This document shows, in pieces, positions 189-20,769 of a stretch of 49,068 nt of DNA. This DNA is from an uncultured Candidatus Peribacteria bacterium (GTDB lineage: Bacteria; Patescibacteriota; Gracilibacteria; BD1-5; UBA2023), in NCBI GenBank assembly GCA_964518815.1, contig CAZFLS010000001.1:1-49068 (forward strand), in the 5' to 3' direction. Under the pieces are notes generated by a model. That model was not told the DNA's origin, did not search any database, and was given only the letters and a program-made list of their open reading frames with translations. Each line of letters opens with the position of its first letter. Positions within the stretch are counted from its first letter, which is position 1. The translations under genes were made by a program, and so were the position numbers.

Positions 189-1562
189 ATGAGTTTTTAT
201 TTTAAAGGCAGATTTGGTTTTGATGATAAAAATAATAAGCTTATTTCAAAAAAAGTAATTACAGAAAAATTTAAACTTAAGTATGAAGAAAGGAATATTA
301 ATGATTTAAAAATCAAATATAATAAATTTCAAGAAAAGCTAGAAAAAGAGAAAATAAGAAAAATGGAATATTATGAGAGGATTAAAATAAATATTAATAA
401 AATAGATCAAATCGATAGTTTAGAATTTATTGATAAATTAAAAAAATATTTTAATAATTCTGTATTGCAAAATAAAGACCCTGCTTATACAAAAGAAAAT
501 ATTACGCTAATAAAAAATAGATTGAAAATTAATTTTCAAGAAAAAAATAAAAATAATAAATTTTATGAAGATGATTGAAAAAATACTACTTCGGGTCTAT
601 TTTTATCTAAATCAGAAGACAATACTGGTTATCAATTAAAAGATTTTTCAAAACATGAAAGAAGTAGAAATTACAATTTTTTAAAAAACTGGGTTTTAAA
701 AGATATAAAAGTATCATGAAAAGAAATGGGAAATATTTTATATTATACAACCTGAATTGCATTAAATGCAAAGAATGAAAAAAATTCACCAATTGATAAA
801 AAAGTATTTTTAGATGCTTTATATTCAAAATTAATTTTGCCCGAAAATAACGATCAAAAAGAAAATGAAAATTGATTATCTATTATTACAAAACTTAACT
901 ATCCAGCCTGATTTTTAAAAATTTTCATTGGATTTATGCATTATATTCACGAAAATATTTCGAGTAATAATTTAAAAGTAAATAATGATTCAAATTGAAT
1001 CGAATATATAATTGAAGTTAATAAACTCTTAAAAAATGTTTTTAATATTTACTCAAAGTCAAGCCTAGAACATAATAAAAAACTGTTTTATAAAATTATT
1101 GAAATAATCTCTAAGGTAAAGATAGAGATAAAACATAAAAACAATTATTCAAAGGAAACAATATTAATTTTTACTAAGCTTGAAAAGGCAAAACAATGAA
1201 GAAATGATATTTTAATAATAAAATGATCAAACAATAATATTAAATTTTCTAATAATTCAGCTTTTTTTAATAAAGAAATACTTACTTTTCAAAAAGGATT
1301 TGCAGATACGAAAATTACAGACTTATTTCTACTAATAAATTGATTACTAAATTCAATCTCTCATGATTTATCGTACTCTTTAGATGTAATATACAAATAT
1401 TTAAATTACAATCATGCAAGCAAATCGGTATTGCAAACATTAAAAAAACATTTAAATAAATGAAAGAAAAAGGCTTTTTTTAAATATTATGAGATTAAAG
1501 ACGGTAAAATTGCATTTTCTAAAAGAGAAAAAAGTATAAGTAATAAGACAAAAAATAAATAA
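189..1562 (+). CDS. hypothetical protein (457 aa with TGA=Gly)
   Basis: ORF-track fragment 189..578 continues in the same frame through multiple in-frame TGA codons to TAA at 1560-1562. Lys/Asn-rich, no motif recognised. Confidence 0.55.
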
Positions 1563-1706
1563 TTTAATTAAAATTTTTACTTATCTAATCCTATTATTAC
1601 TAGATAAAAAATTTAAAGCCAAAAAAAACTTGACTTTCATAACAAAAAGAATAATATAGTTATGAATATATATTCACAATTAATTTTATTTCTTAACAAT
1701 ATTACT

Positions 1707-1964
1707 ATGCCATACTTAGATTGAACAGGTCCGGCTGGGCAAGGTCCTAAGACAGGACGAGGTTTTGGTTCTTGTTCTGGAAACCAGCAAGTAAACACTT
1801 TGGGTTATGGAAGATGAATGGGTATGTGAAGATGAAGATGATTAAGATGTTGTGATGTTGGATTTTGAAATGTTCAAGCATCTTTGGAAGATCAAGAAAA
1901 ATTTTTAGAAGGCAGATTAGATGCTGTTCGTAAACTTAAAAAAGAATCTAACTCCAAAAAATAA
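1707..1964 (+). CDS. DUF5320-family protein
   Basis: MPYLDGTGPAGQGPKTGRGFGSCSG...GYGRGMGMGRGRG matches the MPxxDGTGPxGxGPxTGRGxG signature. Several Gly in the GRG repeats are TGA codons. C-terminal coiled coil. An in-frame ATG at 1662 is an alternative start. Confidence 0.8.
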
Positions 1965-2239
1965 TGGTACGACCTAGATTATGTAGAAGAGTTCTTCTAG
2001 ACCCAAAAGTGACATTTTATAAACCTCAAGGTATCCCGCTTAGTACATTGAAAGTAATAGAACTTTCACATGAAGAGTGGGAAGCTTTGAGGTTAAGACA
2101 TATAGAATGATTAGATCAAATAAAATCTGCCAAAAAGATGAATACTTCTCAAAGTACTATGCAAAGGATTTTAGCTTCTGCTCATAAAAAGCTATGAGAA
2201 GCTATCGTAAAAGGTTTAGCAATTAAAATTATTAAATAA
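1964..2239 (+). CDS. DUF134 (UPF0251) predicted DNA-binding protein
   Basis: MVRPRLCRRVLLDPKVTFYKPQGIP...LSHEEWEALRLRHIEGLDQIKSAKKMNTSQSTMQRIL is the typical DUF134 pattern. The start overlaps the upstream stop (TAATG). Confidence 0.8.
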
Positions 2240-2240
2240 T

Positions 2241-2522
2241 ATGGATAAATCAAAAATAAACTATGTAATTGATACTCTTATGTTTATATTCTTTTTTATT
2301 ACCTCAATTACAGGATTAATTATTTTTTTCTTTTTACCTAGTGGTGTAAGACAAGGAAGATTTCAAGAGTTTATGTGAATTACAAAAGAAGTTTGGAATT
2401 TTATTCATGTTTGGTCATGAATTTTGATAATAATTTTTGTTATATTGCATTTGATTTTGCACTATAATTGGATTATTTGTATGACAAAAAATTTATTTTC
2501 CAAAAAGAATTGTAAAAATTAA
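2241..2522 (+). CDS. DUF4405-like small membrane protein
   Basis: 93 aa with two hydrophobic helices and HVWSGILIIIFVILHLILH. It sits in the usual position next to DUF134/DUF5320 genes. Confidence 0.6.
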
Positions 2523-2548
2523 ATATTTATAATTTATTACCAAAATTT

Positions 2549-3613
2549 ATGAAAAAATTTATTCTTTCAATCATTTTATTGAATACCTTTTTGTTTGTAT
2601 TCTCATTTAATGCATTTGCTCAAAGTGGTGATATGATTTTGTTTTATTGAAATGGATGTCCTCATTGTGCAAAAGTTGAAGATTATATTAAAAGCAATAA
2701 TTTAAATTTAAATATAGAACAAAAGGAAGTTTATCAAAACAAAAATAATGCAAATGAATTTAATAAGATTTGTGATAAGGAAAATATTTCTTTGATGGAC
2801 AGATGAGTACCTTTTTTGTATTCCAAATGACAATGTTTTATCTGAGATAAACAGATTATCTCATATTTAAGCGAATTTAAAGGTAATATTTCCAAAGAAG
2901 AATGAAAAAAAGAAGAGCAAGTAAAAAAAGGTTTTTCTGATTCTTTAACTATACCATTTTTAATTTGAGCCGCTTTGGTAGACGCTATAAATCCATGTGA
3001 ATTTGCTGTATTACTAATATTAATGACTACGATTCTTGCTTCATGAAACAGAAAAAGAGCTTTATTATCAGGATTAGCATATTCTTTATCTATTTTTATT
3101 TCGTATTTTTTAATGGGGCTTGGTATTTATTCTATAATTTTAAGTGTAGAAACTTCCACTATCTTTATTAAAATTATATGATGTATAGCAATTCTTCTTT
3201 GAATTTTTAACCTCAAAGATTATTTTTGGTATGGTAAATTTTTCGTAATGGAAGTTCCTCTTAGTTGGAGACCAAAATTAAAATCACTTGTAAGATCAAT
3301 TACATGACCAATTAGCGCCTTTTTTATATGAATTTTGGTTAGTTTATTTTTGCTACCTTGTACAAGCTGACCTTATATTGTAATCTTAGGTATGCTTTGA
3401 CATAATGAAACTTACTTAAAAGCAGTTTTATTATTACTACTCTATAATGTTATATTTATACTGCCAATGATTGGTATTACAATTTGAACTTATTTTTGAA
3501 TGAATGTAGAAAAGGCAGAAGAAAAAAGAACTAAAAGTTTACAATTACTTCATTTAATTGCTTGAATAATTATGTTGATAATGTGAATTGTATTGGTAAC
3601 AGGAATTTTTTAA
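2549..3613 (+). CDS. thioredoxin-fold domain fused to CcdA/DsbD-type thiol-disulfide transmembrane transporter
   Basis: Signal-like N-terminus, then a GNGCPHC redox motif. This is followed by multiple TM helices carrying DAINPCEF and LLPCTSGPY (DsbD_2/CcdA conserved Cys). Many TGA=Gly codons. Confidence 0.75.
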
Positions 3614-3800: not shown

Positions 3801-4082
3801 AAAAATATCTTTTACTTGATTTTTTTAGGCAAAAGAGTAGAGCTCATAAGCATTATTTTATATTACAAATTTAATAAACAATCACGAATTGGTTAATAAG
3901 AAATTAAGAAGAACGTAAAATTAAAGTATGTCTATATAATAATTTTTTCATTTTTCTAAATAACTATAAAATAGTAAAGGTTTCTTTGAAAAAAGATCCC
4001 AACCTTTTGTGACGCTTTTTTGGTTTAAAAAAGGTGTAGCTTCCAGGATTTTAATCCTAGGCAGCCATTTTTATTAGTTTTT

Positions 4083-4279: not shown

Positions 4280-4392
4280 TGAAATTTTAAATAAAAACTT
4301 TCTTTTTAGAAAAAATAAATAAACTTATTGGGTACTTTTGGCATTAATTACTGATAAATCTAGAAAGTATACTATTTATTTAACTATTTTTT

Positions 4393-6096
4393 ATGAAATC
4401 AAATAATACAATTATCAATACTGATAATAGCCAAGTTTATGCTGCTATATATTGTAGAGTAAGTACAGAAGAACAAGCAAACAATAGAATTAGTCTTCAT
4501 GATCAAGAGCAAAGATGTTTAGATAGGGCTAAACAACTTGGATATATTGTTAAACCAAAACATATTTTTCGAGATGAATGAATTAGTGGAACTTCGATCG
4601 ACAAAAGACCAGGTATGATAGAACTTCTTTCATCTATTACATGATCAAAATTTCAGAAATTCAATGATATCAATATTAGTGCGATTATTTCATTGAGTAT
4701 GGATCGTATTTCCCGTAACCATTACGATTATTTATTTTTTAAAAAGCTTTTAGAAAAACATTCGGTAAAATTTATTAGTATTGAACAAGAATACATTGGT
4801 CAAAATCAAGATGATATGGTTGCTGATCTTCTTGAAAATATTATTTCTATTTTTAATGAACTGCTAGTAAAAATTACTGCTAAAAAAACTTCTTTTGCTA
4901 TGGAAAGAAAAGTTTTGGATTGATGGCTTCCTTGACAAGCACCATTTGGCTATATGAATGTAAATATTGGATCAGATGAAAAACCAGAAAGAGTTATACG
5001 TGTTAATGAAGAAGAATCAAAAATAGTCCAAGAAATGTATAATAAATACGCCCAATGAAATTGTTCTTATTCTGATCTTACAAAATATCTCAAACAAAAG
5101 GGTTTTACAAATAAAAATGGGAAGCTTTTCGCCAAAAGTTCAGTAAACAAAATTTTAAATAATATTTTTTATACAGGAAAAATTCTTTTCAAAAATAAAG
5201 TCTATGATTGAAAACATGCGCCTATAATTAGCCAAGAATTGTTTGATAAAGTTTCTCGATTAAGTAAAGAAAGAGATCAAAATTCATTTCATCAGAAGAA
5301 ATATTATCATTATCTTTTAAAGGGTTTAATATATTGCCAAAAAACAGGCAATCCTTACTCTGCTACAAGGACTTTTAAAAAAGCTAAGGATTATACAAAG
5401 GAATATTACTTTCCAATAAAAACAAAGCAACCTGAGTGAAACCTTGATTCAAAAGAATATCAATATCTTATAAAAGGTCAATATATCGAAGTGGAAGTAT
5501 TAGAAAAAATGGTTGAAGAAGAAATAAAAAAAATAAAAATAAATTCAGATTACCTAGACCAACTAACAGAAAAAGCTCGTTCTATGTTTGAGGATCAAAA
5601 TAAGGTGAATCGTCTTGAAGAATCAAATTTAAGAAAACAGATTCGGGATATACAGTTACAAATGGAAAAACTTGAAGAAAAATATATTGAAACTAAAACT
5701 ATTTCCGATGATGTTTATACTAGATTGCATTGAAAATATGAAGATAATAAAAAGAAGCTTGAAACACAGATGAATAATAAGAGAAAAATCATAGAAATTC
5801 AAAAAACTGACTTCGATAAACTTCTTAAAATTATGAAAGATCCATATACTCTTTATAAAAATACAGATACAACAGAAGGAAAAACTAAACTATTAAAACT
5901 TATTTTTGAAAAGATTTTCGTTTACAACAAAAAAATCCAGAAGGTTCAGTACACTAGTAGTATACGTGATCTTCTAGATAATCAAGCGGTTTTGTTTCGC
6001 AAAACATGGCTCCCAATAGTTGAGGAAGTTAGAAATGTTTTTAAAGAGTTAAATTGATTTGTTTACATACCAAATTTAAATCATTCCAATTTTTAA
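4393..6096 (+). CDS. large serine recombinase (integrase), 567 aa
   Basis: YCRVSTEEQ catalytic Ser motif. FRDE-G-ISGTS and GWLPGQAPFGY with Gly as TGA. VYDGKHAPIISQELFDKV recombinase-domain motif and a C-terminal coiled coil. Five ORF-track fragments share one frame, joined by TGA. Confidence 0.9.
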
Positions 6097-7259: not shown

Positions 7260-7382
7260 CTATTTTCTACAAGAAATATTTCTCAACATTTTACAGTTTG
7301 CACGGCCCTTCGATTGTTTTGACCCGCACGCCTGGATGTTTACACCTTTTGTAACTTTTACTTTTTTGATTTGTTTTTTCAT
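7260..7382 (-). CDS. candidate RiPP precursor peptide, 40 aa, polycationic, three Cys
   Basis: AAGGAG Shine-Dalgarno sits 8 nt upstream of the ATG. Sequence MKKQIKKVKVTKGVNIQACGSKQSKGRANCKMLRNISCRK, stop TAG, terminator downstream. Starts 72 nt after the radical SAM gene stop. Confidence 0.6.
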   Translation of the reverse strand: MKKQIKKVKVTKGVNIQACGSKQSKGRANCKMLRNISCRK

Positions 7383-7454
7383 TTCATTAAACTCCTTTAA
7401 GATTTATTTTTGAACATTTTTACATCACTTTACCTATTTGTTTTTATTATATAA

Positions 7455-8762
7455 CTATTTTTCACCTCCTTTCATAAAAAACTTAGTTACATCACACTTA
7501 TGAGAAGATGGTATTCTATAATCTCCATTCTCTATCAGTGCGACACCTATACAACTATCACAAAAATCTCTTATTTTGCAATTCATGCATTTCGGTATTT
7601 CTGTAATACTAAACTTATTAAGGAATTTGTATTTATTTTTTAGAATCTCATTAAGAGGTAATTTTCTTATATTTCCCATTACTATCCTTAAGTCAAGACA
7701 AGGATATACATTGCCGTCCGAACCTATAGCTATTTGATCTTTACCAGCAAAACAAACAGTTTTGTCGTTTGCACAATTTCTGTATTTTTTTTGTTCAGTA
7801 AAACCATTGATTTTTTTTAAAAATGGTGCAAATTTTTCTTTCAATTCTTTCGCTGATAGTCTTAATTCTATCCCGTATTCTAAGCCCTTTCTGTTTGGAG
7901 TAATGTATGGAGAATAAGAAACATTAACATCCCCAATCTTTTTGATTTTTTCGTGAATTTGTTCAATTTCATCAATATTATGTTTACCAACCATTACAGA
8001 TAGCGATACCGGAATACCGTTATCAATCATTTTTTTTATGGTGTCTGATAATTTACTAAAACTATAGTTTGTAGAGGTAATACCAGAAAACCCATCTTTG
8101 GTTTCATATATTGAAATTTGTAAATCTAAAAGATTTAGGTGTTTAAGTTTTTTGATTATCGTTTCATTGATAATCGTGCCGTTGGTTTTTATTTCCAAAC
8201 AAAAACCCATTTTATTATATGCAGACAATATTTCAAGAGCATCTTTTCTTAAAAATAACTCCCCTCCTGTGAATAAAACAGATACCACTCCCAAATCTTT
8301 TAATTGACGACCCAGATTTATTATAGTGTCTTTATCTAAACCTTTCTCAGTAAAATTATCCAAATAACAAAACTTACATCTTTGATTACAGTTGTTAGTA
8401 AGCTCTATGGATGCGTTAATAATCTGATCGTTTTGAATTGCATACTCGATTAATTTATCAAAAGCATTACCTCTAACGTCTACATTATCTACTTCTTTTT
8501 TATCAGAAGTGCTTTTGGCTTTTGCTTTCTTAGATATAAATGTTGCTACTATTTTTTTAATTTCTCTGTACATCTTTTTTATCTCTTTATGATCTTTTTT
8601 TTCATAGGCATCCAAATATTTCCTTTCAAGCTTGTAGTTTGGATTACTTAAAAAAATTAAAGCAATTTCTGACAATGAACCCTCAATAAAAAGAGAAGAT
8701 AAATCTTTGGTATCAAAAATAAAAACACCGTCATTATATTTTCTTGTAATAAATCTTTTCAT
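7455..8762 (-). CDS. radical SAM / SPASM-domain peptide maturase with N-terminal PqqD-like (RRE-like) region
   Basis: Intact 435-aa ORF even in the standard code. CNQRCKFC (CxxxCxxC) and GGELFL motifs. C-terminal Cys cluster CFAGKD..DGNVYPC..CMNCKIRDFCDSC..HKC is typical of SPASM. Confidence 0.85.
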   Translation of the reverse strand: MKRFITRKYNDGVFIFDTKDLSSLFIEGSLSEIALIFLSNPNYKLERKYLDAYEKKDHKEIKKMYREIKKIVATFISKKAKAKSTSDKKEVDNVDVRGNAFDKLIEYAIQNDQIINASIELTNNCNQRCKFCYLDNFTEKGLDKDTIINLGRQLKDLGVVSVLFTGGELFLRKDALEILSAYNKMGFCLEIKTNGTIINETIIKKLKHLNLLDLQISIYETKDGFSGITSTNYSFSKLSDTIKKMIDNGIPVSLSVMVGKHNIDEIEQIHEKIKKIGDVNVSYSPYITPNRKGLEYGIELRLSAKELKEKFAPFLKKINGFTEQKKYRNCANDKTVCFAGKDQIAIGSDGNVYPCLDLRIVMGNIRKLPLNEILKNKYKFLNKFSITEIPKCMNCKIRDFCDSCIGVALIENGDYRIPSSHKCDVTKFFMKGGEK

Positions 8763-11710: not shown

Positions 11711-12040
11711 ATGGCAAAAAATAAAAAGATGTTTTTAAAATATTTTAATACAATTATTTATAATAAAATATCTTTAATATATACTTTATTAATGCGTTTA
11801 TTAGAAAATTACTTACTCAATATACCCGTTTTATACTGATTAATCTTAGTTATATTTATTATTGTATTGTTATTTGCATTAGTTTCTTGAATTAAACTGT
11901 TAGTGAAAAATAAAATAAACTTTAATAATTTAAATAAAAAATATTACCTTATTATATTATATTGTTGTTTTTTACTTTTTTTATTATATTTTAGATATGA
12001 TCTTCTAAGATTTATTTTATATTTCTATAACTTCTCTTAA
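11711..12040 (+). CDS. possible small membrane protein (109 aa)
   Basis: ATG..TAA with two in-frame TGA codons and two hydrophobic stretches. Overlaps the 3' end of the convergent nuclease gene by 24 nt. Could be spurious. Confidence 0.25.
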
Positions 12041-12775
12041 GTTCTCAAAATATGCACAATAATCACATTCTTTACTTGAATCTGGTATAATATCACTATT
12101 TAAACATTTATGTAACTCTATAATAGTATTTTCTATCCAATTATCATTTCAAGTATAAGAAATAAGATTAATATCAAATTCTAACCTATAATCAAACGCG
12201 TCTTTGTCTGTATTTCAATTACAATATACAAAATATCCTGTATCTGAAACCTCAAGTCAGTTTTTTCTTAAAAGCCATTGATATATTTCCATTTGTCTCT
12301 TATATCAATCTTGCCAGTCTTGATTTAATTCTGTTATTTCTTCATTCTTTGAAGTGGCTTTATAATCTACTACAATATATTCTCAATTACTACTCTGCCA
12401 TAAGTCATCTATAGCTCAAAATATAAGTAAATTGGTTTTTGAATGTAAATACTGAATTCAAGTAAAATTATGTCTCCATTGTTCTAAAAGTTCGTGAGAT
12501 ACAGGTTTTGCATCAATATTATACTTTTCTATTAGAGGATGTTTTGCTCAATTGTTTCTGTATATATCAAATTCTTTCTTTAAAAGATGATCTACTGCAC
12601 TATTTAAACTAAAAGGAAATCCTGGAGGTCTTCAAATTCAAAGTCTTCTATCTAAATAAAAACATCTTGGACAATCTATAAATAAATCAATTTTAGATCT
12701 ACTTAATTTAAAAGGTTGACTATCTTTTGGGTTGTATATGTTTTTTGTGCGTTTTGGGTTATAATATTCTGACAT
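12017..12775 (-). CDS. PD-(D/E)XK nuclease, Cas4/RecB-like with Cys cluster
   Basis: N-terminal CPRCFY and C-terminal CDYC (four-Cys pattern as in Cas4). AIDDL...VVDYKAT (D..D/ExK) and RQMEIYQWL (QxxxY). Confidence 0.7.
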
Positions 12776-12787
12776 AAGGTTATTGTA

Positions 12788-15397
12788 TTATTTTATAAAT
12801 TTATCTTCAAAAGCTTTTTCAAATTCATTCTCTTTTTTTTCACTATAAAAAGGTAATCAAATAAGCTTATAATTTCAAAAGTTCATTTCTAATATTTTTG
12901 CTTTATCTTCTATTTCAAGTAAAAATTCTTGTTTCCAGCCTTCTATAGAATTTTCAAATCCTAAATTACTATCCTTAAATTGATCTCATTTCGGTTCTAT
13001 AAATATTTGATAAGTAAAAGGTTGTTTTGTAATTTTATCTTGCATAAACAATATAAAATCAGGCTCAAACCTATCTCAATTTATAAATGAATAAATAGCA
13101 ACAGTTCTTTCATTTCGGATTAAATAAATATTAGTATATTTTTTTTCTAATTTTTGTATTATATCTTCAAACATTTTTATAAAACTCTTTTCTTCACTAG
13201 TTCAATTGATTTTTTCAAAAACAAACCATTTTTTATTTACTCAAAATCATTCTACTCATAAATCCACTTTTATAGCTTTTTCAAAAGGATATTTAGAAAT
13301 ATTCTTTGATATAAAAGTTTTTGTTCATTCATACTCAACTTTTTTATCTTTAATTTCAATTTCTAAGATATTTAAAAGAGATGAAACAGCTTTTAACTTA
13401 TTTTCTATTGTTAAATTCTCTAAAACTTCCTTAGAGCTGTAAAAATCTATACTTATATTTCATAGATAATTATCCGATTTAATAAACTCATCAATACTTT
13501 GAAGTTTTCAAAGATAACTTTTAAGGTTGGAAAATTTATAGAAATCATTTCTTTGTATAGCTTTTCTTACAATTCTATTATCAATTTCTTTTATTAAAAT
13601 ACTTTTTGGTTCTTTTTCTATTTTAAAATTATCTTTCTTATCATCAAAAGCTTCTATATCATAGCTCTTTCAAGTAAATAAATCTTTAAATTCATATCTT
13701 TTAGTTTGGAGTCAGATTTTTTCAAAACTATCAATATTTGAATAATCTTTAAATTTTTTCTCATTTGTAAAAATAACTCAATTTTTATAAAATTCACTAT
13801 CTTTAAAGGATCTTTTAAATTCAAAAATAAAATCCTTTTTTTCTTTTTCATCCATAATTCAAATATCTCTTAAAGCCTGTCTTATTTCTGCAATATATAA
13901 ACTATCAAAACTTGTATGATAATAAAAAGTTTCAAGTATTTTTAAATCATCGAGCTTATTATCAAACTTTCTTTTGAATTTATTTTCTCATAAAGTTTTT
14001 TCTGTTACAAAAGGAAAATATCTTGCTCATCTTCATATGAGTTGAGCTTCGCTAATTGTTTGGGGTCAAACTTTGATTTTTCAAGTTTTTTTATCTACTA
14101 CATTACTTCTAGACTCATATAATCTTACAATATCAAAAAGATTTAAAACATCCCATCATTCATTTAGTTTTTGTACAGCAAAAACAGCTCTTATACGATT
14201 GTTTTTATCTTCAAGAGTATTAAGTAGTAATTGATTTTTTCAAGCCTCACTATCATCATTTGCACTTATACAATTTTCATGAACAAAATCATCTTTTAAC
14301 TCATTCACAAGTAAATCAAGACTTATTTTACTTTCTTCAAAAAATTCAAAAGCTTTTAATATAATTTCTGAATTAGTTTTGTTTTTTATATTTAAAATCT
14401 GATCTGGCTTTAATTCTTTTATAAGCTTATCAAAATTTATTAAATTATTTTCACTTTCTGCAACTGTTTTTTGAGCCTTAAATAAAATAACTGGTTTACA
14501 TAATATTTTATTTTTTTCTGCTACTTTTAATCTATATTGACTTAAAACAAGAGCCTGTAATATTCTGTCATTTTGTTCCATATCAGCCTTTAAAATATCT
14601 ACTTCTTTACTATATCAATCAAGTCTAAATTGTTTTAAATCATATCTGTAAATAATTTTATCAAGATATTTTTCGGATATATTTTCATTTCATAAATCTA
14701 TCGTTGCTGTAAATTCCAAAAGCATATTTTCTATATGAGAATTAAGAATTTTCATTATTGTATATTCCCATGAAGTCTTTTCTTCTTGTTCAGTTTTATT
14801 TAAATTTCAATTTTTTGTAAGTGTATTTATATGATGGGCTTCATCTGAAATTATAACTATTTTTTTGTCTTTGAATTCTTCATAAGATACCCTTCATTCT
14901 CATATTACATTCATATCAGTATGAAGTCCGTGAATAGTGGTAAATTTAATATTAATATTATCATCTGTATTACCTGAAAAATTAGAAACTTCTTTTATTT
15001 GTATTTGTTTTCCATCAAACACAATCTTATCATTGAATAAATACTTTGAAGAATTACTATTTAAAAAATTATCTTTCGTTTTTTCTATAATATTTGTCGA
15101 ATTTACAAAAAACAAGAAGTTTCTATATCATTTTTCATATAAGCTCAAAATAAGTCCAGCCATTACATAAGTTTTACCGCTTCAAGTTGCCATGTTATAG
15201 AGCAAATGAATAGGTATTTTCTTGTTTTTATAGCTGTCTATATAATATGAGAATCTAACAAAAGCTTCTTTTTGATACTCTCTCATCTGAAATTTTTCAT
15301 TCAGATTTTTTGTAATATTCAAAGGAATGTTCTTATCGAGAACATCCATTTCGGAAAGGGTATCAAATTTTTGGTAGAGAAATTGTTGTGTCGTCAT
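12788..15397 (-). pseudogene. res: type III restriction enzyme Res subunit (SF2 helicase + PD-ExK endonuclease), reading frame interrupted
   Basis: MAT-G-SGKT Walker A, VIISDEAHH (DEAH), LNEGWDVLNLFDIVRL and QLIGRGARY (motif VI). C-terminal RFEPDFILF..IFIEPKG endonuclease motif. In-frame TAA TAA at 13955-13960. Confidence 0.75.
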
Positions 15398-15430
15398 AGT
15401 TAATTTCTATTTTTTAAAACATAAAATAAA

Positions 15431-15781
15431 TTATTTTTTTCTAGATATTATTTTTTCAATAGTTTTTTCAAAACTATTTTCTCTTTTAATCAAAAAATAC
15501 AATATTAACATAATAATACCAATTATTAAACTAGAAAATAATATTGAAAGATATAAAATTTCATAAATTTTATCCTTAAAATTTGTTCAAGTTAATAATG
15601 TAAGTAAAGCTGTAAAAAAAACTCAAAATAAAAAAATTGATATATCAATTAAAAGTGGAAAATTATTTCTTGGTCAAGCTTTAATAATATCTAATTCTTC
15701 CTCTTGTACTTCATAAAAAGTCAGCTGTCATACTTGATGAACTATTTTTGTTGCTTGATTTTCATTATTTCAATTATTCAT
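15431..15781 (-). CDS. small two-TM membrane protein (116 aa)
   Basis: ATG..TAA, 351 nt. Hydrophobic segments LLIDISIFLFGVFFTALLTLL and ILYLSILFSSLIIGIIMLILYFL. Confidence 0.5.
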
Positions 15782-15791
15782 AATTTTGAAA

Positions 15792-16064
15792 TTAAAGATT
15801 ATCCATAAGCCACTCATTTTTACAAATAACATTTTGCCAAGCAGCAACTCTTCAAGAAAGGATAACAAATATACGATCATTACTATCTATTTTTGTTTGT
15901 AAAGAATTTCTAATATTTTCTGCACTTTGATCTGTCTTAACAGCCCATACTGATTCTAGTATCTTTGCCCAAGTACCATAAGATTTTATTGCCTGATATA
16001 AATCTTCATAATGTCAATAACTTTGATCTTTTCTTAGATCGTAACTTATAATATAAGTGTTCAT
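15792..16064 (-). CDS. small alpha/beta protein with Cas2-like motif pattern (90 aa)
   Basis: MNTYIISYDL..YEDLYQAIKSYGTWAKILESVWAVKT..AENIRNSLQTKIDSNDRIFVIL. The YDL and SVW motifs are spaced as in the Cas2 ferredoxin fold. The fold assignment is inference only. Confidence 0.45.
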
Positions 16065-16087: not shown

Positions 16088-18010
16088 TTATTTATAAAAC
16101 TCTCCATTAATCTTTTTATCTTCTTTACTTACTCAATTATTTACATCTTCAATCTCGCTATAATTTACATAAAGCATATTCTTATCAAGAAGCTTGAACA
16201 AAAACTTTTTCTGATTTTCTATACTTAATTTTTCAAATTCATCTGTATTTTCATCAATATTTTTAATATTTACTTTGTAATTTATATATCATGTTTTCTT
16301 TATCTCTTCATATATTTTTATTATTTCTTTACTTGTTTTAGCTTCTTGAATTTTATCAATGAAATTTTGATTATTTTTCATAAGTTCCATATAAACAAAA
16401 TCTCATCATCAATTATTTTTAATTACCTGTTGTACTCTAGGAATAGTTACATTTCTAATATAATCCATTTGCTCAATTAATATAAATTGTCTATTTCATC
16501 AATCTTCTTTATTTAATTCCAAAACTGCATGAGCTGTTGTCCCACTACCTCAAAAAAAGTCTAATATTTTTGCTTCCTTATTTTTTGAAACTATTGCATA
16601 TATACAATCATATACATTCCATAAAGATTTTGGGAAACTAAATTTACATCAAGGAACCAAACTTTTTATAAGTTTTGTTCCATATTCATTTGCATCGTAT
16701 TTTTTATCTATCCAAACTGTTTTATATTGTCAAAAATCTTTTCAAATATCAATATCATAAACATCGTTATTAACTTTCACGTGTAATAAATCTTGTACTT
16801 CTTCTATACTTTGACGAGCATATCTCCATTTTCTTTCCACTCATTCCTTATCAATTGGATAAATTTCAACAAAATCTCAATCATGTACATTAACCTGAGG
16901 ATGAGTTCAATCGGAACAAACATTTCAAAATCAGATAACCTGTAAAGTTTTTTTGTCTGCTATAATTGAATAAAAACAATTTTTAGCATCTGTTCTTTTT
17001 GACTCTCAGCCATTATCTCTTAATCATCTATTTTTTATGTCTTCTTCAGCTATTTTTCTATTTAATACTGTTTTTTTATCTTTAGGAATAATAAAAAATG
17101 CAAATTCATGGGTATAAGAAAAGTTTGTACCTTGTACTCATCTTGGATTATGAACTATTGTAATGCAATGACTCTCATATTCTGGGAATATTTCATCAAG
17201 TAATACTCATAAATATACTTGTTCAGCTTTATCAATTGCAACAATCAATACTCATTCTTTTTTAAGTAAATTCTTTGCAATATCTAACCTATTTTTCATA
17301 AAAGTAAGCCAGGAAGAATGTTTAAATCTATTATTATATTCAAAAGTATCTCAATTTCCTCAAGTATTATAAGGGGGGTCAATATAAATAAGGTCTAATT
17401 TTCATGCAAAACTGCTCTTCAAACTATGAAGAGCTAAAAGATTATTTCATTTGATAATAAGATTATCTTTTATAGTTCAATTTTCATCTCTTTTAAATCA
17501 ATCAAGCTTGTGTTCTCAAGTCTTATCTATTCTTTTGAAATTCGTAAAAACCTTTTCATCAAGAAGTCTATCTATATCATCATTTCATAAAATTTCATTA
17601 TAAAAAACTTCATCTCTTTTAACATCTTCTTTATCTTGTCCTCAAGCCAAAATACAGTCTTTATATGGAAAACTTAAAACAACATCATTGTTGTCATTTA
17701 GGAGGTCTCATTTTGAATTTGTGAGTCCGATTTTATTTTTGAAACTTGTATAGCTATCGGGTAAAAATTCTTTATTGTTTATAAACTGAATGAATTTTTT
17801 ACTATCAAAAACTTCAAAATTACTTCAATAATTTAATGATTTAAAAAATGCTTTTTTTGTGTCTTTATTATTAAAAAGTAACCATATAAGATCCCCGTCT
17901 AATTTATCTGCTTCTTCTCTTATTACATTCTTCAATAAATCTCATTCTTGAGATATAAATCTTTTGTCTTGTTTTAATACTTCATATAAAATTTGAAATA
18001 AATTTTTCAT
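16088..18010 (-). CDS. mod: type III R-M Mod subunit, N6-adenine DNA methyltransferase (beta class)
   Basis: DLIYIDPPYNTGGNGDTFEYNNRFKHSSWLTFM (DPPY motif IV) lies upstream of ILDFFGGSGTTAHAV (motif I). 1923 nt in one frame. Confidence 0.85.
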
Positions 18011-18017
18011 ATAAAAA

Positions 18018-18212
18018 GGCAATCAATAAATAAGATTGCCGAGTTTATTTGTGGTTTATTGTAGCAAAAACAAAGCAGGCAGTATATGTGCCAGAGTTTT
18101 TGCTACAAAACCTTTTCCGCATGCATTGAATTGCAGACAGTTGGACTTACCATATACTGCCTGCAGGTTTTTCAATACATACTTAAAAATACGAACTCGG
18201 TTTTGTAGCAAG
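18018..18212. other. GC-rich structured element (RNA leader/ncRNA or DNA cruciform or origin-like site)
   Basis: Perfect complementary pairs: 18060-18071/18096-18107 (12 bp), 18075-18088/18151-18164 (14 bp), 18101-18112/18199-18210 (12 bp), 18039-18045/18194-18200 (7 bp), 18018-18024/18034-18040 (7 bp). Confidence 0.5.
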
Positions 18213-18328
18213 TTCATATTAATAAAAAAAGTATAAAATCCAAATTTTTGTTAATAATTGTTAAGATTTGATTTAAATTAATGAAAAGATATAATTTAAA
18301 AAATTAGAATTAATAATAAATACTTCAA

Positions 18329-19639
18329 ATGCAGAAAATGAAAAAAAATAAAATAGTTTATGAAAATCAAGAATGAATCTTTCTTTTATGGTACTTAATT
18401 GAAGAATCTAAATATAGAAGTCAATATGTATCAATCAAATGAATTAAATTATTTTATGTAAGTTTAGAAAAGTTAGATTTTTCTTGAAAATTAAAAATAA
18501 GAGAATCTATCAATATACTATGAAAATATATGCAGGCTTGATTTATAAACAGTATTTATTTTAAGATATTTAGGCGAGGTGAATTTATATTAAAAAAGGA
18601 TAACAATATTTTAAAAGCAGACCTTTTTATGTTATCATATTACTTAGAAAAAAAATTTAATATAGATGAATTTAAAACTTTAAATGACGATGATAATTGA
18701 ATTTCTGTTGGAATAAATTTGAACAATAATATTATTAAAAAGAAAATCCTATCATATCAAAAATTATGGTTAAACGATGAATTAGTATGATGGAATAAAA
18801 ATATTTTAAAATCTGAAGTACAAATAAAAGAAGTTACAAGTCATTTGTTCTATTTATTAAGAGATTATTCCTCAAAATATTTATTTATTAGTTCGTATAA
18901 AACTTATAATTGAACAAAAATAGATGTTTTACTCGTTCTATTATTTTTAGAAAAAATTTGAGATATAAAATTTATAAAAAGCGAATGTATCCTTAATAAA
19001 TATGATGATATGGAATTTTGATTTAGAATATGTATTAAGGAAAAATTTCTTGAAGATTTCAAGAAAGATAAATTTTGAAAAAGTAATTTTGATTTTGAAT
19101 GTCTTAAAAATTCTACTGAAAAATGAATAAAAAAATCACAAAAAAAATCAATTTGATCTGCTAACGTTAGAAACAAAAATCAAGAAGAATTTCAAGAAGT
19201 TCAGGCTATTTTTGGTAGTTTAGACGATAACAAGAAATCAAATAATATGAATACTTTTAAATACTCAGCAACAGATACTAATTCTAAAACACAAGATACC
19301 ATTCCTTTAAAAATAAATTATATATCAGAAACAAAAGAATTATTTATAAATAATATTAAAATTCCTTTATCAAGACTAGAAACCGAATTTTTTCAAATCT
19401 TATACAAATATAAACCAATTAATGAAGATTTAGATTTCTGAGATATAGCTCAAGAATTAGATATACAATATAATAGATTATCAATTGAAAAACAGAAGAA
19501 AATGAAAAAGAAATATTATAATGCCAATAATAGTCTAAGAAAAAAAATTATATTGCAAACCTGAATAAAAGAAATTTTTATCACCTCCTCTAATCTTATC
19601 AGATTTAACACAAAATATTCCTATAATTTTTCATCTTAA
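18329..19639 (+). CDS. hypothetical protein with C-terminal OmpR/PhoB-like winged-helix segment (436 aa)
   Basis: One frame from ATG at 18329 (a second ATG at 18338) through many TGA codons to TAA at 19637-19639. C-terminal IPLSRLETEFFQILYKYKPINEDLDFGDIAQEL resembles the trans_reg_C pattern. Confidence 0.5.
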
Positions 19640-20431: not shown

Positions 20432-20736
20432 TAAAAGAATTAAAAAGAAAAGAACAAGATATTTTACAACGATTAATGGATCATTCTAAAGCAGATGAAC
20501 AATTTTTAATAACAAGTTCTTATATATTGGAACTAGCAAATCGTGCTTATGAACTATTTGAAAGTTCGCAAGCTGAGCAAAAACGAAGATTACTAAATTT
20601 TGTATTTGCGAACTTTTCTGCACAAGGCAGTAAACTACAATACAAAATAAAAGAGCCGTTCAACGAACTGCTCTTTGCTTCAAAATCTTCAAATTGGCTC
20701 CCGCAGCTGGATTCGAACCAGCGACCAAATGGTTAA
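20395..20736 (+). pseudogene. C-terminal remnant (about 100 aa) of a large serine recombinase, reading into tRNA-Asn
   Basis: ITSNEYDKIIKELKRKEQ..LLNFVFANFS..SNWLP aligns by eye with the last 100 aa of the intact recombinase (..LLKLIFEKIF..RKTWLP). The final codons LPQLDSNQRPNG are the antisense of the tRNA gene. Confidence 0.7.
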
Positions 20737-20769
20737 CAGCCACCTACTCTACCGCTGAGCTATGCGGGA
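20695..20769 (-). tRNA. tRNA-Asn (anticodon GTT), CCA encoded
   Basis: TCCCGCA-TA-GCTC-AGCGGTA-GAGT-A-GGTGG-CTGTTAA-CCATT-TGGTC-GCTGG-TTCGAAT-CCAGC-TGCGGGA-G-CCA. 7-bp acceptor stem, TTCGAAT T-loop, 75 nt. Confidence 0.9.

Follow-up and report, generated by a model that had tools for sequence, protein, structure and literature searches.

What is encoded by the short GC-rich spacer that, in a genome otherwise rich in A and T, precedes the first gene of a type III restriction-modification (R-M) operon? The spacer is in a contig of an uncultured Candidatus Peribacteria bacterium (NCBI GenBank assembly GCA_964518815.1, contig CAZFLS010000001.1), of which positions 1 to 49,068 of the forward strand, the whole stretch of DNA analysed, are here called the window. 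Its product is very probably a conserved structured RNA, encoded, like mod, the gene that heads the operon, on the minus strand. The conserved helices of this RNA form two mutually exclusive folds and, at a rough probability of 0.55, the sequence points to a terminator-based switch, a cis-acting attenuator, set in front of the R-M genes. An initial annotation of the locus had offered a regulatory leader or riboswitch-like RNA with alternative folds, a 6S-like non-coding RNA, or a cruciform, rolling-circle origin or recombination site as possible meanings for the spacer. It is the first of these that is favoured here: two exclusive folds covary in two other loci, and the unit has a promoter-like site on one side and, on the other, a terminator-like hairpin directly adjoining the start codon of mod.

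The starting observation was of three mutually overlapping perfect helices and a further pairing, CCGAGTT with AACTCGG, able to close the whole unit, and all four proved exact and far beyond chance. The segment 18059-18071 is 100% complementary to 18096-18108 (13 bp) and 18100-18112 to 18199-18211 (also 13 bp), GCAGGCAGTATATG at 18075-18088 has its exact reverse complement at 18151-18164, and CCGAGTT at 18039-18045 can be seen by eye to pair with AACTCGG at 18194-18200. Stems of at least 10 bp number five in the predicted RNA against a shuffle mean of 0.65, and 0 of 300 shuffles reached five. Folding of both strands, a check that the initial annotation had proposed, came out clearly for the minus strand, which folds 20 kcal/mol better than the plus strand (-78.5 kcal/mol, z = -9.4, and -58.4 kcal/mol, z = -4.3, respectively); with the RNAs trimmed, the sense strand folds better than the antisense strand in 2 of the 3 loci that carry the element. 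Two G-U pairs in the outer stem of one hairpin, HP2 below, are possible on the minus strand only. Since the G-U pairs, the U-tract and the promoter fit that strand alone, the RNA is assigned to the mod strand; neither the strand nor the promoter and terminator as parts of the unit had been noticed at the outset. The helix motifs do not recur, and the element has no further copy, beyond chance elsewhere in the window. The description of the spacer as the most GC-rich non-coding stretch needs a correction: at 0.39 it holds the fourth most GC-rich 150-nucleotide (nt) stretch of a window whose overall GC is 24%, and among non-protein-coding 150-nt stretches the tRNA-Asn gene exceeds it (0.47), the spacer heading those that remain.

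Is the structure peculiar to this contig? Contigs encoding the closest Mod proteins yielded L045 (NCBI GCA_020049755.1), where a homologous leader stands directly upstream of the mod-res operon (nhmmer E = 6.9e-7 against the window element; fold z = -7.2). Its mod is 67% identical to that of the window, and the gene immediately after it is a res with 63% identity to the window's. A covariance model (R1) built from the window and L045 yielded in turn L044 (Logan SRR8351382), in which a third, more diverged copy at 1725-1931 scores 34.4 bits (E ~2e-5) and folds with z = -9.6. There the leader directly precedes the gene for a 331-amino-acid (aa) signal-peptide protein adjoining an R-M system, the order being signal-peptide gene, palindromic box, controller-type reading frame and mod. 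All three contigs belong to bacteria that have recoded UGA, with TGA as a sense codon. The genes across the leader are unrelated to one another: an ORFan in the window, a UG19 reverse transcriptase in L045 and a helix-turn-helix (HTH) gene in L044. With Rfam 15 at gathering thresholds the sole match in the whole window is a tRNA, and a permissive scan of 17900-18400 gave two chance-level matches, of 19.9 and 18.7 bits against thresholds of 139 and 216; the Rfam check suggested at the outset has left the spacer without explanation by any known element.

The unit is read from high to low coordinates. Its promoter-like site, 18243-18216 on the minus strand, has the -35-like hexamer TTGGAT (18238-18243, read by eye), a 16-nt spacer and the -10-like hexamer TAATAT (18216-18221). 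In the same register are TTGCCA-N16-TATAGT in L045, which the promoter scan scores 10/12, and TTGATT-N16-TAATAT in L044. The predicted transcription start is G18209, 7 nt downstream of the -10-like hexamer, and in all three loci segment A starts with GC exactly 7 nt past that hexamer. Segment A (GCUACAAAACC, 18199-18209) would be the 5' end of the RNA and pairs, in what is called fold 1, with the 5' part of segment B (GGUUUUGUAGCAAAAAC, 18096-18112); B is a common strand, as the whole of it pairs with segment C (GUUUUUGCUACAAUAAACC, 18053-18071), the 3' strand of hairpin HP3. The A:B helix always begins at nt 1, has 11 bp in the window, 11 bp in L045 and 14-17 bp in L044, and carries compensatory changes in 5 of 11 pairs over the three sequences. 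The main 12-pair stem of HP3 (B:C) has 5 pairs with compensatory change. Competition between the first and third of the helices originally noted, here B:C and A:B, is borne out: A and C both pair with B, and both B positions at which the window and L045 differ covary with A and also with C.

A comparable exchange involves segment X (GCAGGCAGUAUAUG, 18151-18164). Its partner is either X'' (ACUGUCUGCA, 18132-18141), inside hairpin HP2, or X' (CAUAUACUGCCUGC, 18075-18088), in the apical loop of HP3, the X:X' pairing being the second helix of the initial annotation; X covaries with both. HP2 (18119-18182) has an outer stem, 18182-18171 with 18130-18119, in which 7 of 15 aligned pairs show compensatory changes, and an inner stem of X (18165-18156) with X'' (18141-18132), in which 6 of 10 do. 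X:X' is a perfect 14 bp in the window, 13 bp in L045 (16 with wobble) and a perfect 13 bp in L044, where the pairing is kept though the sequence is unrelated; 10 of 14 pairs covary over the three sequences. The helix supposed to close the unit, called P1 here, does pair, CCGAGUU (18194-18200) with AACUCGG (18039-18045), and 5 of its 7 pairs are altered on both sides in L045 (CCCGAAC/GUUCGGG). What had been missed is that the final two G of its 3' strand double as the opening two bases of the terminator stem. That stem belongs to the terminator-like hairpin GGCAAUC-(9 nt)-GAUUGCC (18018-18040; 7-bp stem, 9-nt loop), after which come the U-tract UUUUUAU (18011-18017), filling the space between stem and start codon, and the mod AUG (18010-18008). 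The distance from stem to AUG is 7, 7 and 9 nt in the three loci. The 9-nt loop of the window hairpin is above the limit of 8 in the terminator scan; that scan does call terminators at the corresponding hairpins of L045 and L044, and 3 of the 7 pairs covary in L044. Comparison of the three RNAs gave no conserved open reading frame (ORF) within them. A hairpin of the first fold, 'HP1', was dropped as an RNA feature, its 5' arm being in the -10 region, upstream of the predicted start.

That these helices sort into two folds that cannot coexist is where covariation, another check proposed at the outset, comes in, compensatory changes being found in both L045 and L044. Pairs were counted on hand alignments (A3 and A4, with gaps written as N), as MAFFT, run automatically on the window and L045 (A1), put the helices out of register, and counts were set beside those from shuffles and from slid controls, in which the 3' partner was moved by 1-3 columns. 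With two sequences, fold 2 (P1, HP2 and HP3) is 100% paired with changes on both sides in 13 of 46 pairs (0/500 shuffles; slid controls at most 1), and fold 1 (A:B, X:X' and the terminator) is likewise 100% paired with 5 of 32 (10/500 shuffles; slid at most 1). With three sequences the figures are 96% paired and 22 of 49 for fold 2, scored as HP2, HP3 and the terminator (0/500; slid at most 3), and 98% paired and 18 of 32 for fold 1 with the same components as before (0/500; slid at most 2). A list of stems made for each RNA independently of any alignment has as its longest members A:B, X:X', B:C and usually HP2. Further, A and C have only a core in common, their complementarity extending to different flanks of B, so that alternative RNA helices rather than repeated protein sites are indicated.

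To what use might a pair of exclusive folds be put? The minus-strand 5' leader, of ~200 nt, would start at G18209 from the promoter-like site at 18243-18216 and end in the terminator-like hairpin 18040-18018 and U-tract, 7 nt before the mod AUG. In each locus the leader lies between promoter-like hexamers, in the same register in all three, and an AUG on the same strand 7-9 nt past the U-tract; because a gap of that size is too small for a separate promoter, the transcript of the downstream gene must cross the element, and mod-res transcripts would have to read through the leader terminator. In fold 1, the proposed 'off' state, the 5' end A would pair with B, X could pair with X', and the terminator would be free. 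In fold 2, B:C (HP3) and X:X'' (HP2) would form and the freed 5' region would make P1 near the terminator, P1 closing a three-way junction and taking 2-3 basal G of the terminator stem, with weaker termination as the proposed 'on' state. The balance of the folds would set the amount of transcription entering the R-M operon and could itself be set by the kinetics of co-transcriptional folding or by a protein, RNA or small-molecule effector. Such a switch would cap or time transcription into the R-M operon or, in L044, into another mobile-element gene. The mod-res operon is the common downstream partner in 2 of the 3 loci.

Minimum-energy folds of the nascent chain are alike in the three RNAs. 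With B transcribed, A:B encloses HP2 in a closed domain; A:B has given way to HP3 (B:C) when the terminator loop is complete, and in the window and L045 as soon as C ends; and P1 pairs the freed 5' region before the 3' arm of the terminator exists, so closing the three-way junction. The energies of the nested alternatives are within 0.6-5.3 kcal/mol of each other in the three loci. A:B with the terminator, the full P1 with HP3, and the minimum come to -63.8, -67.4 and -69.1 kcal/mol for the window, -68.0, -71.3 and -71.7 kcal/mol for L045, and -72.4, -73.2 and -73.8 kcal/mol for L044. X:X' would be a pseudoknot in either fold, with a duplex energy of -17 to -23.5 kcal/mol when computed apart from the rest.

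Several points weigh against a switch of this design. The promoter-like site of the window matches 7 of 12 consensus positions and is not called by the promoter scan, and transcription of the leader, its promoter, start site and termination, and the regulatory outcome are all predictions from sequence. The overlap of P1 with the terminator is of 2-3 nt only, and the full-length minimum folds of the window and L045 hold a shortened P1 together with a complete or near-complete terminator stem; because the two coexist, thermodynamics alone predicts no strong antitermination, and an antiterminator role for P1 is plausible in the folding models on kinetic grounds only. P1 in L044 uses segment A itself, so that its register differs among the members. 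The placing of X:X' in fold 1 is a guess: instead of belonging to the 'off' fold, this helix may be a contact between loops of the three-way junction. There are just three members, hand alignments fitted to the helices inflate the paired fraction, and the shuffle controls ignore relatedness. The L044 leader precedes the signal-peptide gene and not mod, from which it follows that the element is not specific to R-M genes, and ~35 other mod loci with intact N-termini carry no such leader. Nor did the three loci reveal an effector, a conserved leader peptide, a T-box or known-aptamer match in Rfam or a shared neighbour protein.

One alternative is a stand-alone small RNA (sRNA) gene having its own promoter and terminator, whose product acts in trans or binds a protein as a three-way junction of P1, HP2 and HP3 that leaves the 5' tail (A) free and the X' loop exposed, the downstream genes being served by leaky read-through. 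Promoter-like and terminator-like sites do bracket the unit in 3/3 loci, the full-length minimum fold has the terminator complete (one pair short in L045) with A single-stranded as in many sRNAs, and the downstream genes differ, mod twice and a secreted protein once. However, with the next AUG 7-9 nt past the U-tract and no promoter between, the RNA is unavoidably the 5' leader of that gene, and one static fold does not explain why A has stayed complementary to B and X' to X; further, the rest of the window showed no complementary target for either A or X' above chance level. An sRNA gene is on balance judged unlikely. The two conserved exclusive folds are equally without explanation if the RNA, once folded, modifies RNA polymerase as put of phage HK022 or the EAR element of Bacillus does, to carry transcription past its own terminator and through a long downstream operon. 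Its location right after a promoter-like site and right before a terminator, at the head of a ~6 kb operon on a mobile island, and its conserved folded core would suit such processive antitermination, but there is no Rfam match though Rfam includes EAR, the form is unlike the two hairpins that constitute put, and the downstream unit in L044 is a single gene of ~1 kb. This is considered very improbable.

Could the repeats function as DNA? Perfect 13-14 bp inverted repeats in a divergent promoter region might be operator sites, inversion or recombination repeats, or the cruciform or single-strand origin of a mobile element; the window encodes a large serine recombinase at a distance of 12 kb, one adjoins the element in L044, and the palindromic operator-like box of sister loci has TTTGTAG in common with it. 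Against that, A and C share only a core, each extending to another flank of B; G-U pairs of several helices become A-C mismatches on the opposite strand; the promoter, the U-tract and the orientation of the downstream gene are strand-specific; the partners of X are placed asymmetrically; and neither a Rep gene nor an invertase adjoins the element in the window. The cruciform, rolling-circle origin or recombination site of the initial annotation is not supported, given the same one-strand G-U pairs, strand-specific promoter and terminator and lack of a Rep, and the nearby 'Rep-carrying element' to which it was attributed has no counterpart among the genes that were annotated. A DNA-level role is a slim prospect. 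The suggestion of a 6S-like RNA finds no support either: RF00013 gives no match, and the multi-branched folds are the wrong architecture. As for protein coding, a 53-aa ORF at 18056-18217 (minus strand) is ATG-initiated, stop-free and spans the element, but its ATG is within the -10-like hexamer region upstream of the predicted start, it has no counterpart in L045 or L044, a look-up found its exact product on record nowhere, and substitutions between the loci keep base pairs and not codons; that it is a small protein gene is scarcely credible. The terminator-based switch is the favoured account.

Other candidates considered for the spacer were set aside. A CRISPR repeat or tracrRNA was brought to mind by GTTTT...AAAC-like ends, and there is no array and no cas9; an invertible promoter or a miniature inverted-repeat transposable element does not agree with a single copy and strand-specific features; a leader peptide would need an ORF that is not conserved; and a retron msr-msd or other non-coding RNA associated with a defence reverse transcriptase has no adjoining reverse transcriptase in the window or L044, that of UG19 type in L045 being divergent and ~300 nt off.

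How widespread is the leader? Among relatives of mod in 21 loci of GTDB genomes and 80 loci of viral contigs it is absent as judged by nhmmer, upstream-fold z-scores and the covariance model, as it also is from the mod loci P0005, P0012, P0043 and P0122. A three-sequence model (R2, from alignment A4) found no further member in 1.2 Mb of loci. The three elements had no BLAST match in phage and plasmid collections, and exact-pattern scans of viral contigs with five patterns gave chance matches or none. A scan of Joint Genome Institute (JGI) metagenomes with GGCAGTATAN{8,16}TTTGCTACAAAA returned 10 chance matches and zero homologues; since the helices covary, a pattern of terminator plus promoter would have done no better.

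The sister loci have something else at the same place. Of six distinct mod relatives from alternative-code bacteria, the window included, the RNA stands immediately before mod in 2/6 (the window and L045), an HTH gene of controller type takes that place in 3/6 (P0002, P0003 and P0043), and the remaining one (L130) has neither RNA nor HTH gene. In the P0002 and P0003 loci a perfectly palindromic operator-like box, TTTGTAGAGTATACTCTACAAA, is beside the HTH gene, with a close variant in L044; it occupies 5644-5671 in L042 and 2967-2990 in L044 and precedes a small HTH reading frame, an arrangement reminiscent of a C-box and its controller protein. The HTH gene is present in L042 and L129; in L043 and L044 the palindromic box is accompanied by an uncalled frame for that gene. 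The nearest mod relatives (73% identity) have an HTH gene and a palindromic box at the position of the leader, and by analogy the controller-type gene of the sister systems may do the same job as the RNA. An HTH domain is absent from every gene of the window's operon and from its divergent neighbour, none of which qualifies as a controller (C) protein. The heptamer TTTGTAG common to the sister palindrome and to segment B of the window RNA may be coincidence.

R-M systems must hold restriction low until the DNA of a new host is methylated, and the known modes of achieving this kind of regulation are C proteins, autoregulation by the methyltransferase and antisense RNAs. Like the C-protein circuits of C.PvuII, C.AhdI and C.Esp1396I, the leader is just upstream of and co-oriented with the first R-M gene, and its presumed job would likewise be to limit or time R-M expression; unlike them it is an RNA, and the proposed control is of termination rather than activation or repression of a promoter. 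A closer formal parallel is with leaders that choose between terminator and antiterminator (the pbuE adenine 'on' switch, T-box, trp/TRAP, pyrR and ribosomal-protein leaders). In common with these it has a ~200-nt 5' leader ending in a hairpin and U-tract, exclusive helices, one of them overlapping the terminator stem, a P1-closed three-way junction, and covariation. It departs from them in having no Rfam match, in a terminator overlap of just 2-3 nt, in conserving two exchanges with three partners (A or C for B; X'' or X' for X), and in its genes, a type III R-M operon and a mobile-element gene of UGA-recoded bacteria.

Plasmid R1 provides a different comparison. In hok of hok/sok, an RNA of a mobile element, early temporary helices are later replaced and the 5' end finally pairs with a 3' segment, the module being potentially lethal and its control exerted through translation, 3' processing and an antisense RNA. 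The leader would be similar in its sequential refolding, late 5'-3' pairing and potentially lethal module, but no antisense partner was seen for it and its output structure is a terminator. With 6S RNA and the housekeeping sRNAs it shares a size of ~200 nt and the character of a GC-rich island in an AT-rich genome; however, it is multi-hairpin and bistable where 6S is a long hairpin with a central bubble, and unlike housekeeping sRNAs it is associated with mobile defence genes, and most relatives lack it.

As a general kind, terminator-bearing leaders with alternative helices are familiar. What appear to be new are a fold without an Rfam family, the double three-partner exchange and the link to type III R-M in bacteria of genetic code 25. 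A 2013 review of R-M regulation does not contain the word riboswitch and describes no attenuating leader (PMC3874152). It is tentatively suggested, with considerable doubt, that this is the first RNA 'controller' of R-M: a new riboswitch or protein-responsive class, in a portable cassette of promoter and leader on the mobile islands of candidate-phyla bacteria with recoded UGA, and a substitute for the HTH C-protein circuit of sister systems. If that is true, the RNA controller senses a cellular cue or times its own refolding and so delays or caps R-M expression after horizontal transfer, an RNA-only solution being added where sister systems have an HTH controller-type gene. It would be a structured regulatory RNA without an Rfam match in bacteria of the Gracilibacteria and Absconditabacteria type, and the two three-partner exchanges would make it a compact natural model for co-transcriptional strand displacement.

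Genetic code 25 is used by Gracilibacteria and Absconditabacteria, and the sequence indicates that the window uses it, UGA being glycine: summed over the whole window, ORFs rise from 3,533 to 19,390 residues once UGA is read through, UGA as Gly is needed for correct conserved motifs (MATGSGKT in Res and FGGSGTT in Mod), and the 33 in-frame TGA codons of mod correspond to Gly in 76 of 132 cells, and never to Trp, in an alignment with four standard-code homologues. Gene calls made with table 11 are meaningless in the window. SRR11235434 includes one contig that matches a part of the window without differences. The mod gene (16088-18010, minus strand; Pfam N6_N4_Mtase and TypeIII_RM_meth) aligns with homologues from residue 1 and is the first gene downstream of the leader, in an operon ordered mod, Cas2-like, membrane protein, res and Cas4-like. 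The extra genes of this type III operon span 12017-16064 (minus strand): between mod and res are a 91-aa Cas2-like protein (15792-16064, minus strand; PADLOC Cas2b, 4e-6) and a 117-aa membrane protein (15431-15781, minus strand), and after res is a Cas4-like PD-(D/E)XK nuclease (12017-12775, minus strand; PADLOC Cas4, 8e-11). Neither a CRISPR array nor cas1 was detected in the window.

The spacer had been described as lying between divergent mod and winged HTH genes. The type III mod is confirmed by Pfam, but the right-hand neighbour, a divergent 433-aa ORF with its start at 18338, has neither a detectable HTH nor any Pfam domain, and zero homologues among 5.8 billion proteins. This ORFan has a promoter-like site of its own at 18268-18295 (plus strand; TTGATT-16-TATAAT, 10/12 by scan), back to back with that of the leader, and the leader unit together with this site accounts for the whole spacer. 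An exact-protein look-up of the window's P0001 and P0006 gave no record. In L045 the divergent neighbour (1132-3336, minus strand) is a 734-aa defence-type reverse transcriptase (PADLOC RT_UG19, 2.8e-45) with a primase-like gene upstream of it; as these adjoin it, the L045 R-M system is also in a defence or mobile island. A mod homologue from a metagenome-assembled genome of Burkholderiales (L007, ~3990-4030) opens with a tract of CAACA pentanucleotide repeats, and a repeat tract at the start of a type III mod is the classic phase-variable (phasevarion) arrangement, another mode of switching.

In the window a large serine recombinase (4384-6096, plus strand), 12 kb from the spacer, and tRNA-Asn (20695-20769, minus strand) flank the R-M operon region and may mark the limits of an integrated island. 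A radical SAM/SPASM gene (7455-8762, minus strand) has 0 TGA in 435 codons where mod has 33 in 640, and after it come a 40-aa Cys-containing ORF (MKKQIKKVKVTKGVNIQACGSKQSKGRANCKMLRNISCRK) and an acetyltransferase, the group spanning 7260-8762 (minus strand). It looks like a small cluster of the type that makes RiPPs, peptides that are ribosomally made and post-translationally modified, possibly a recent acquisition from a donor with the standard code.

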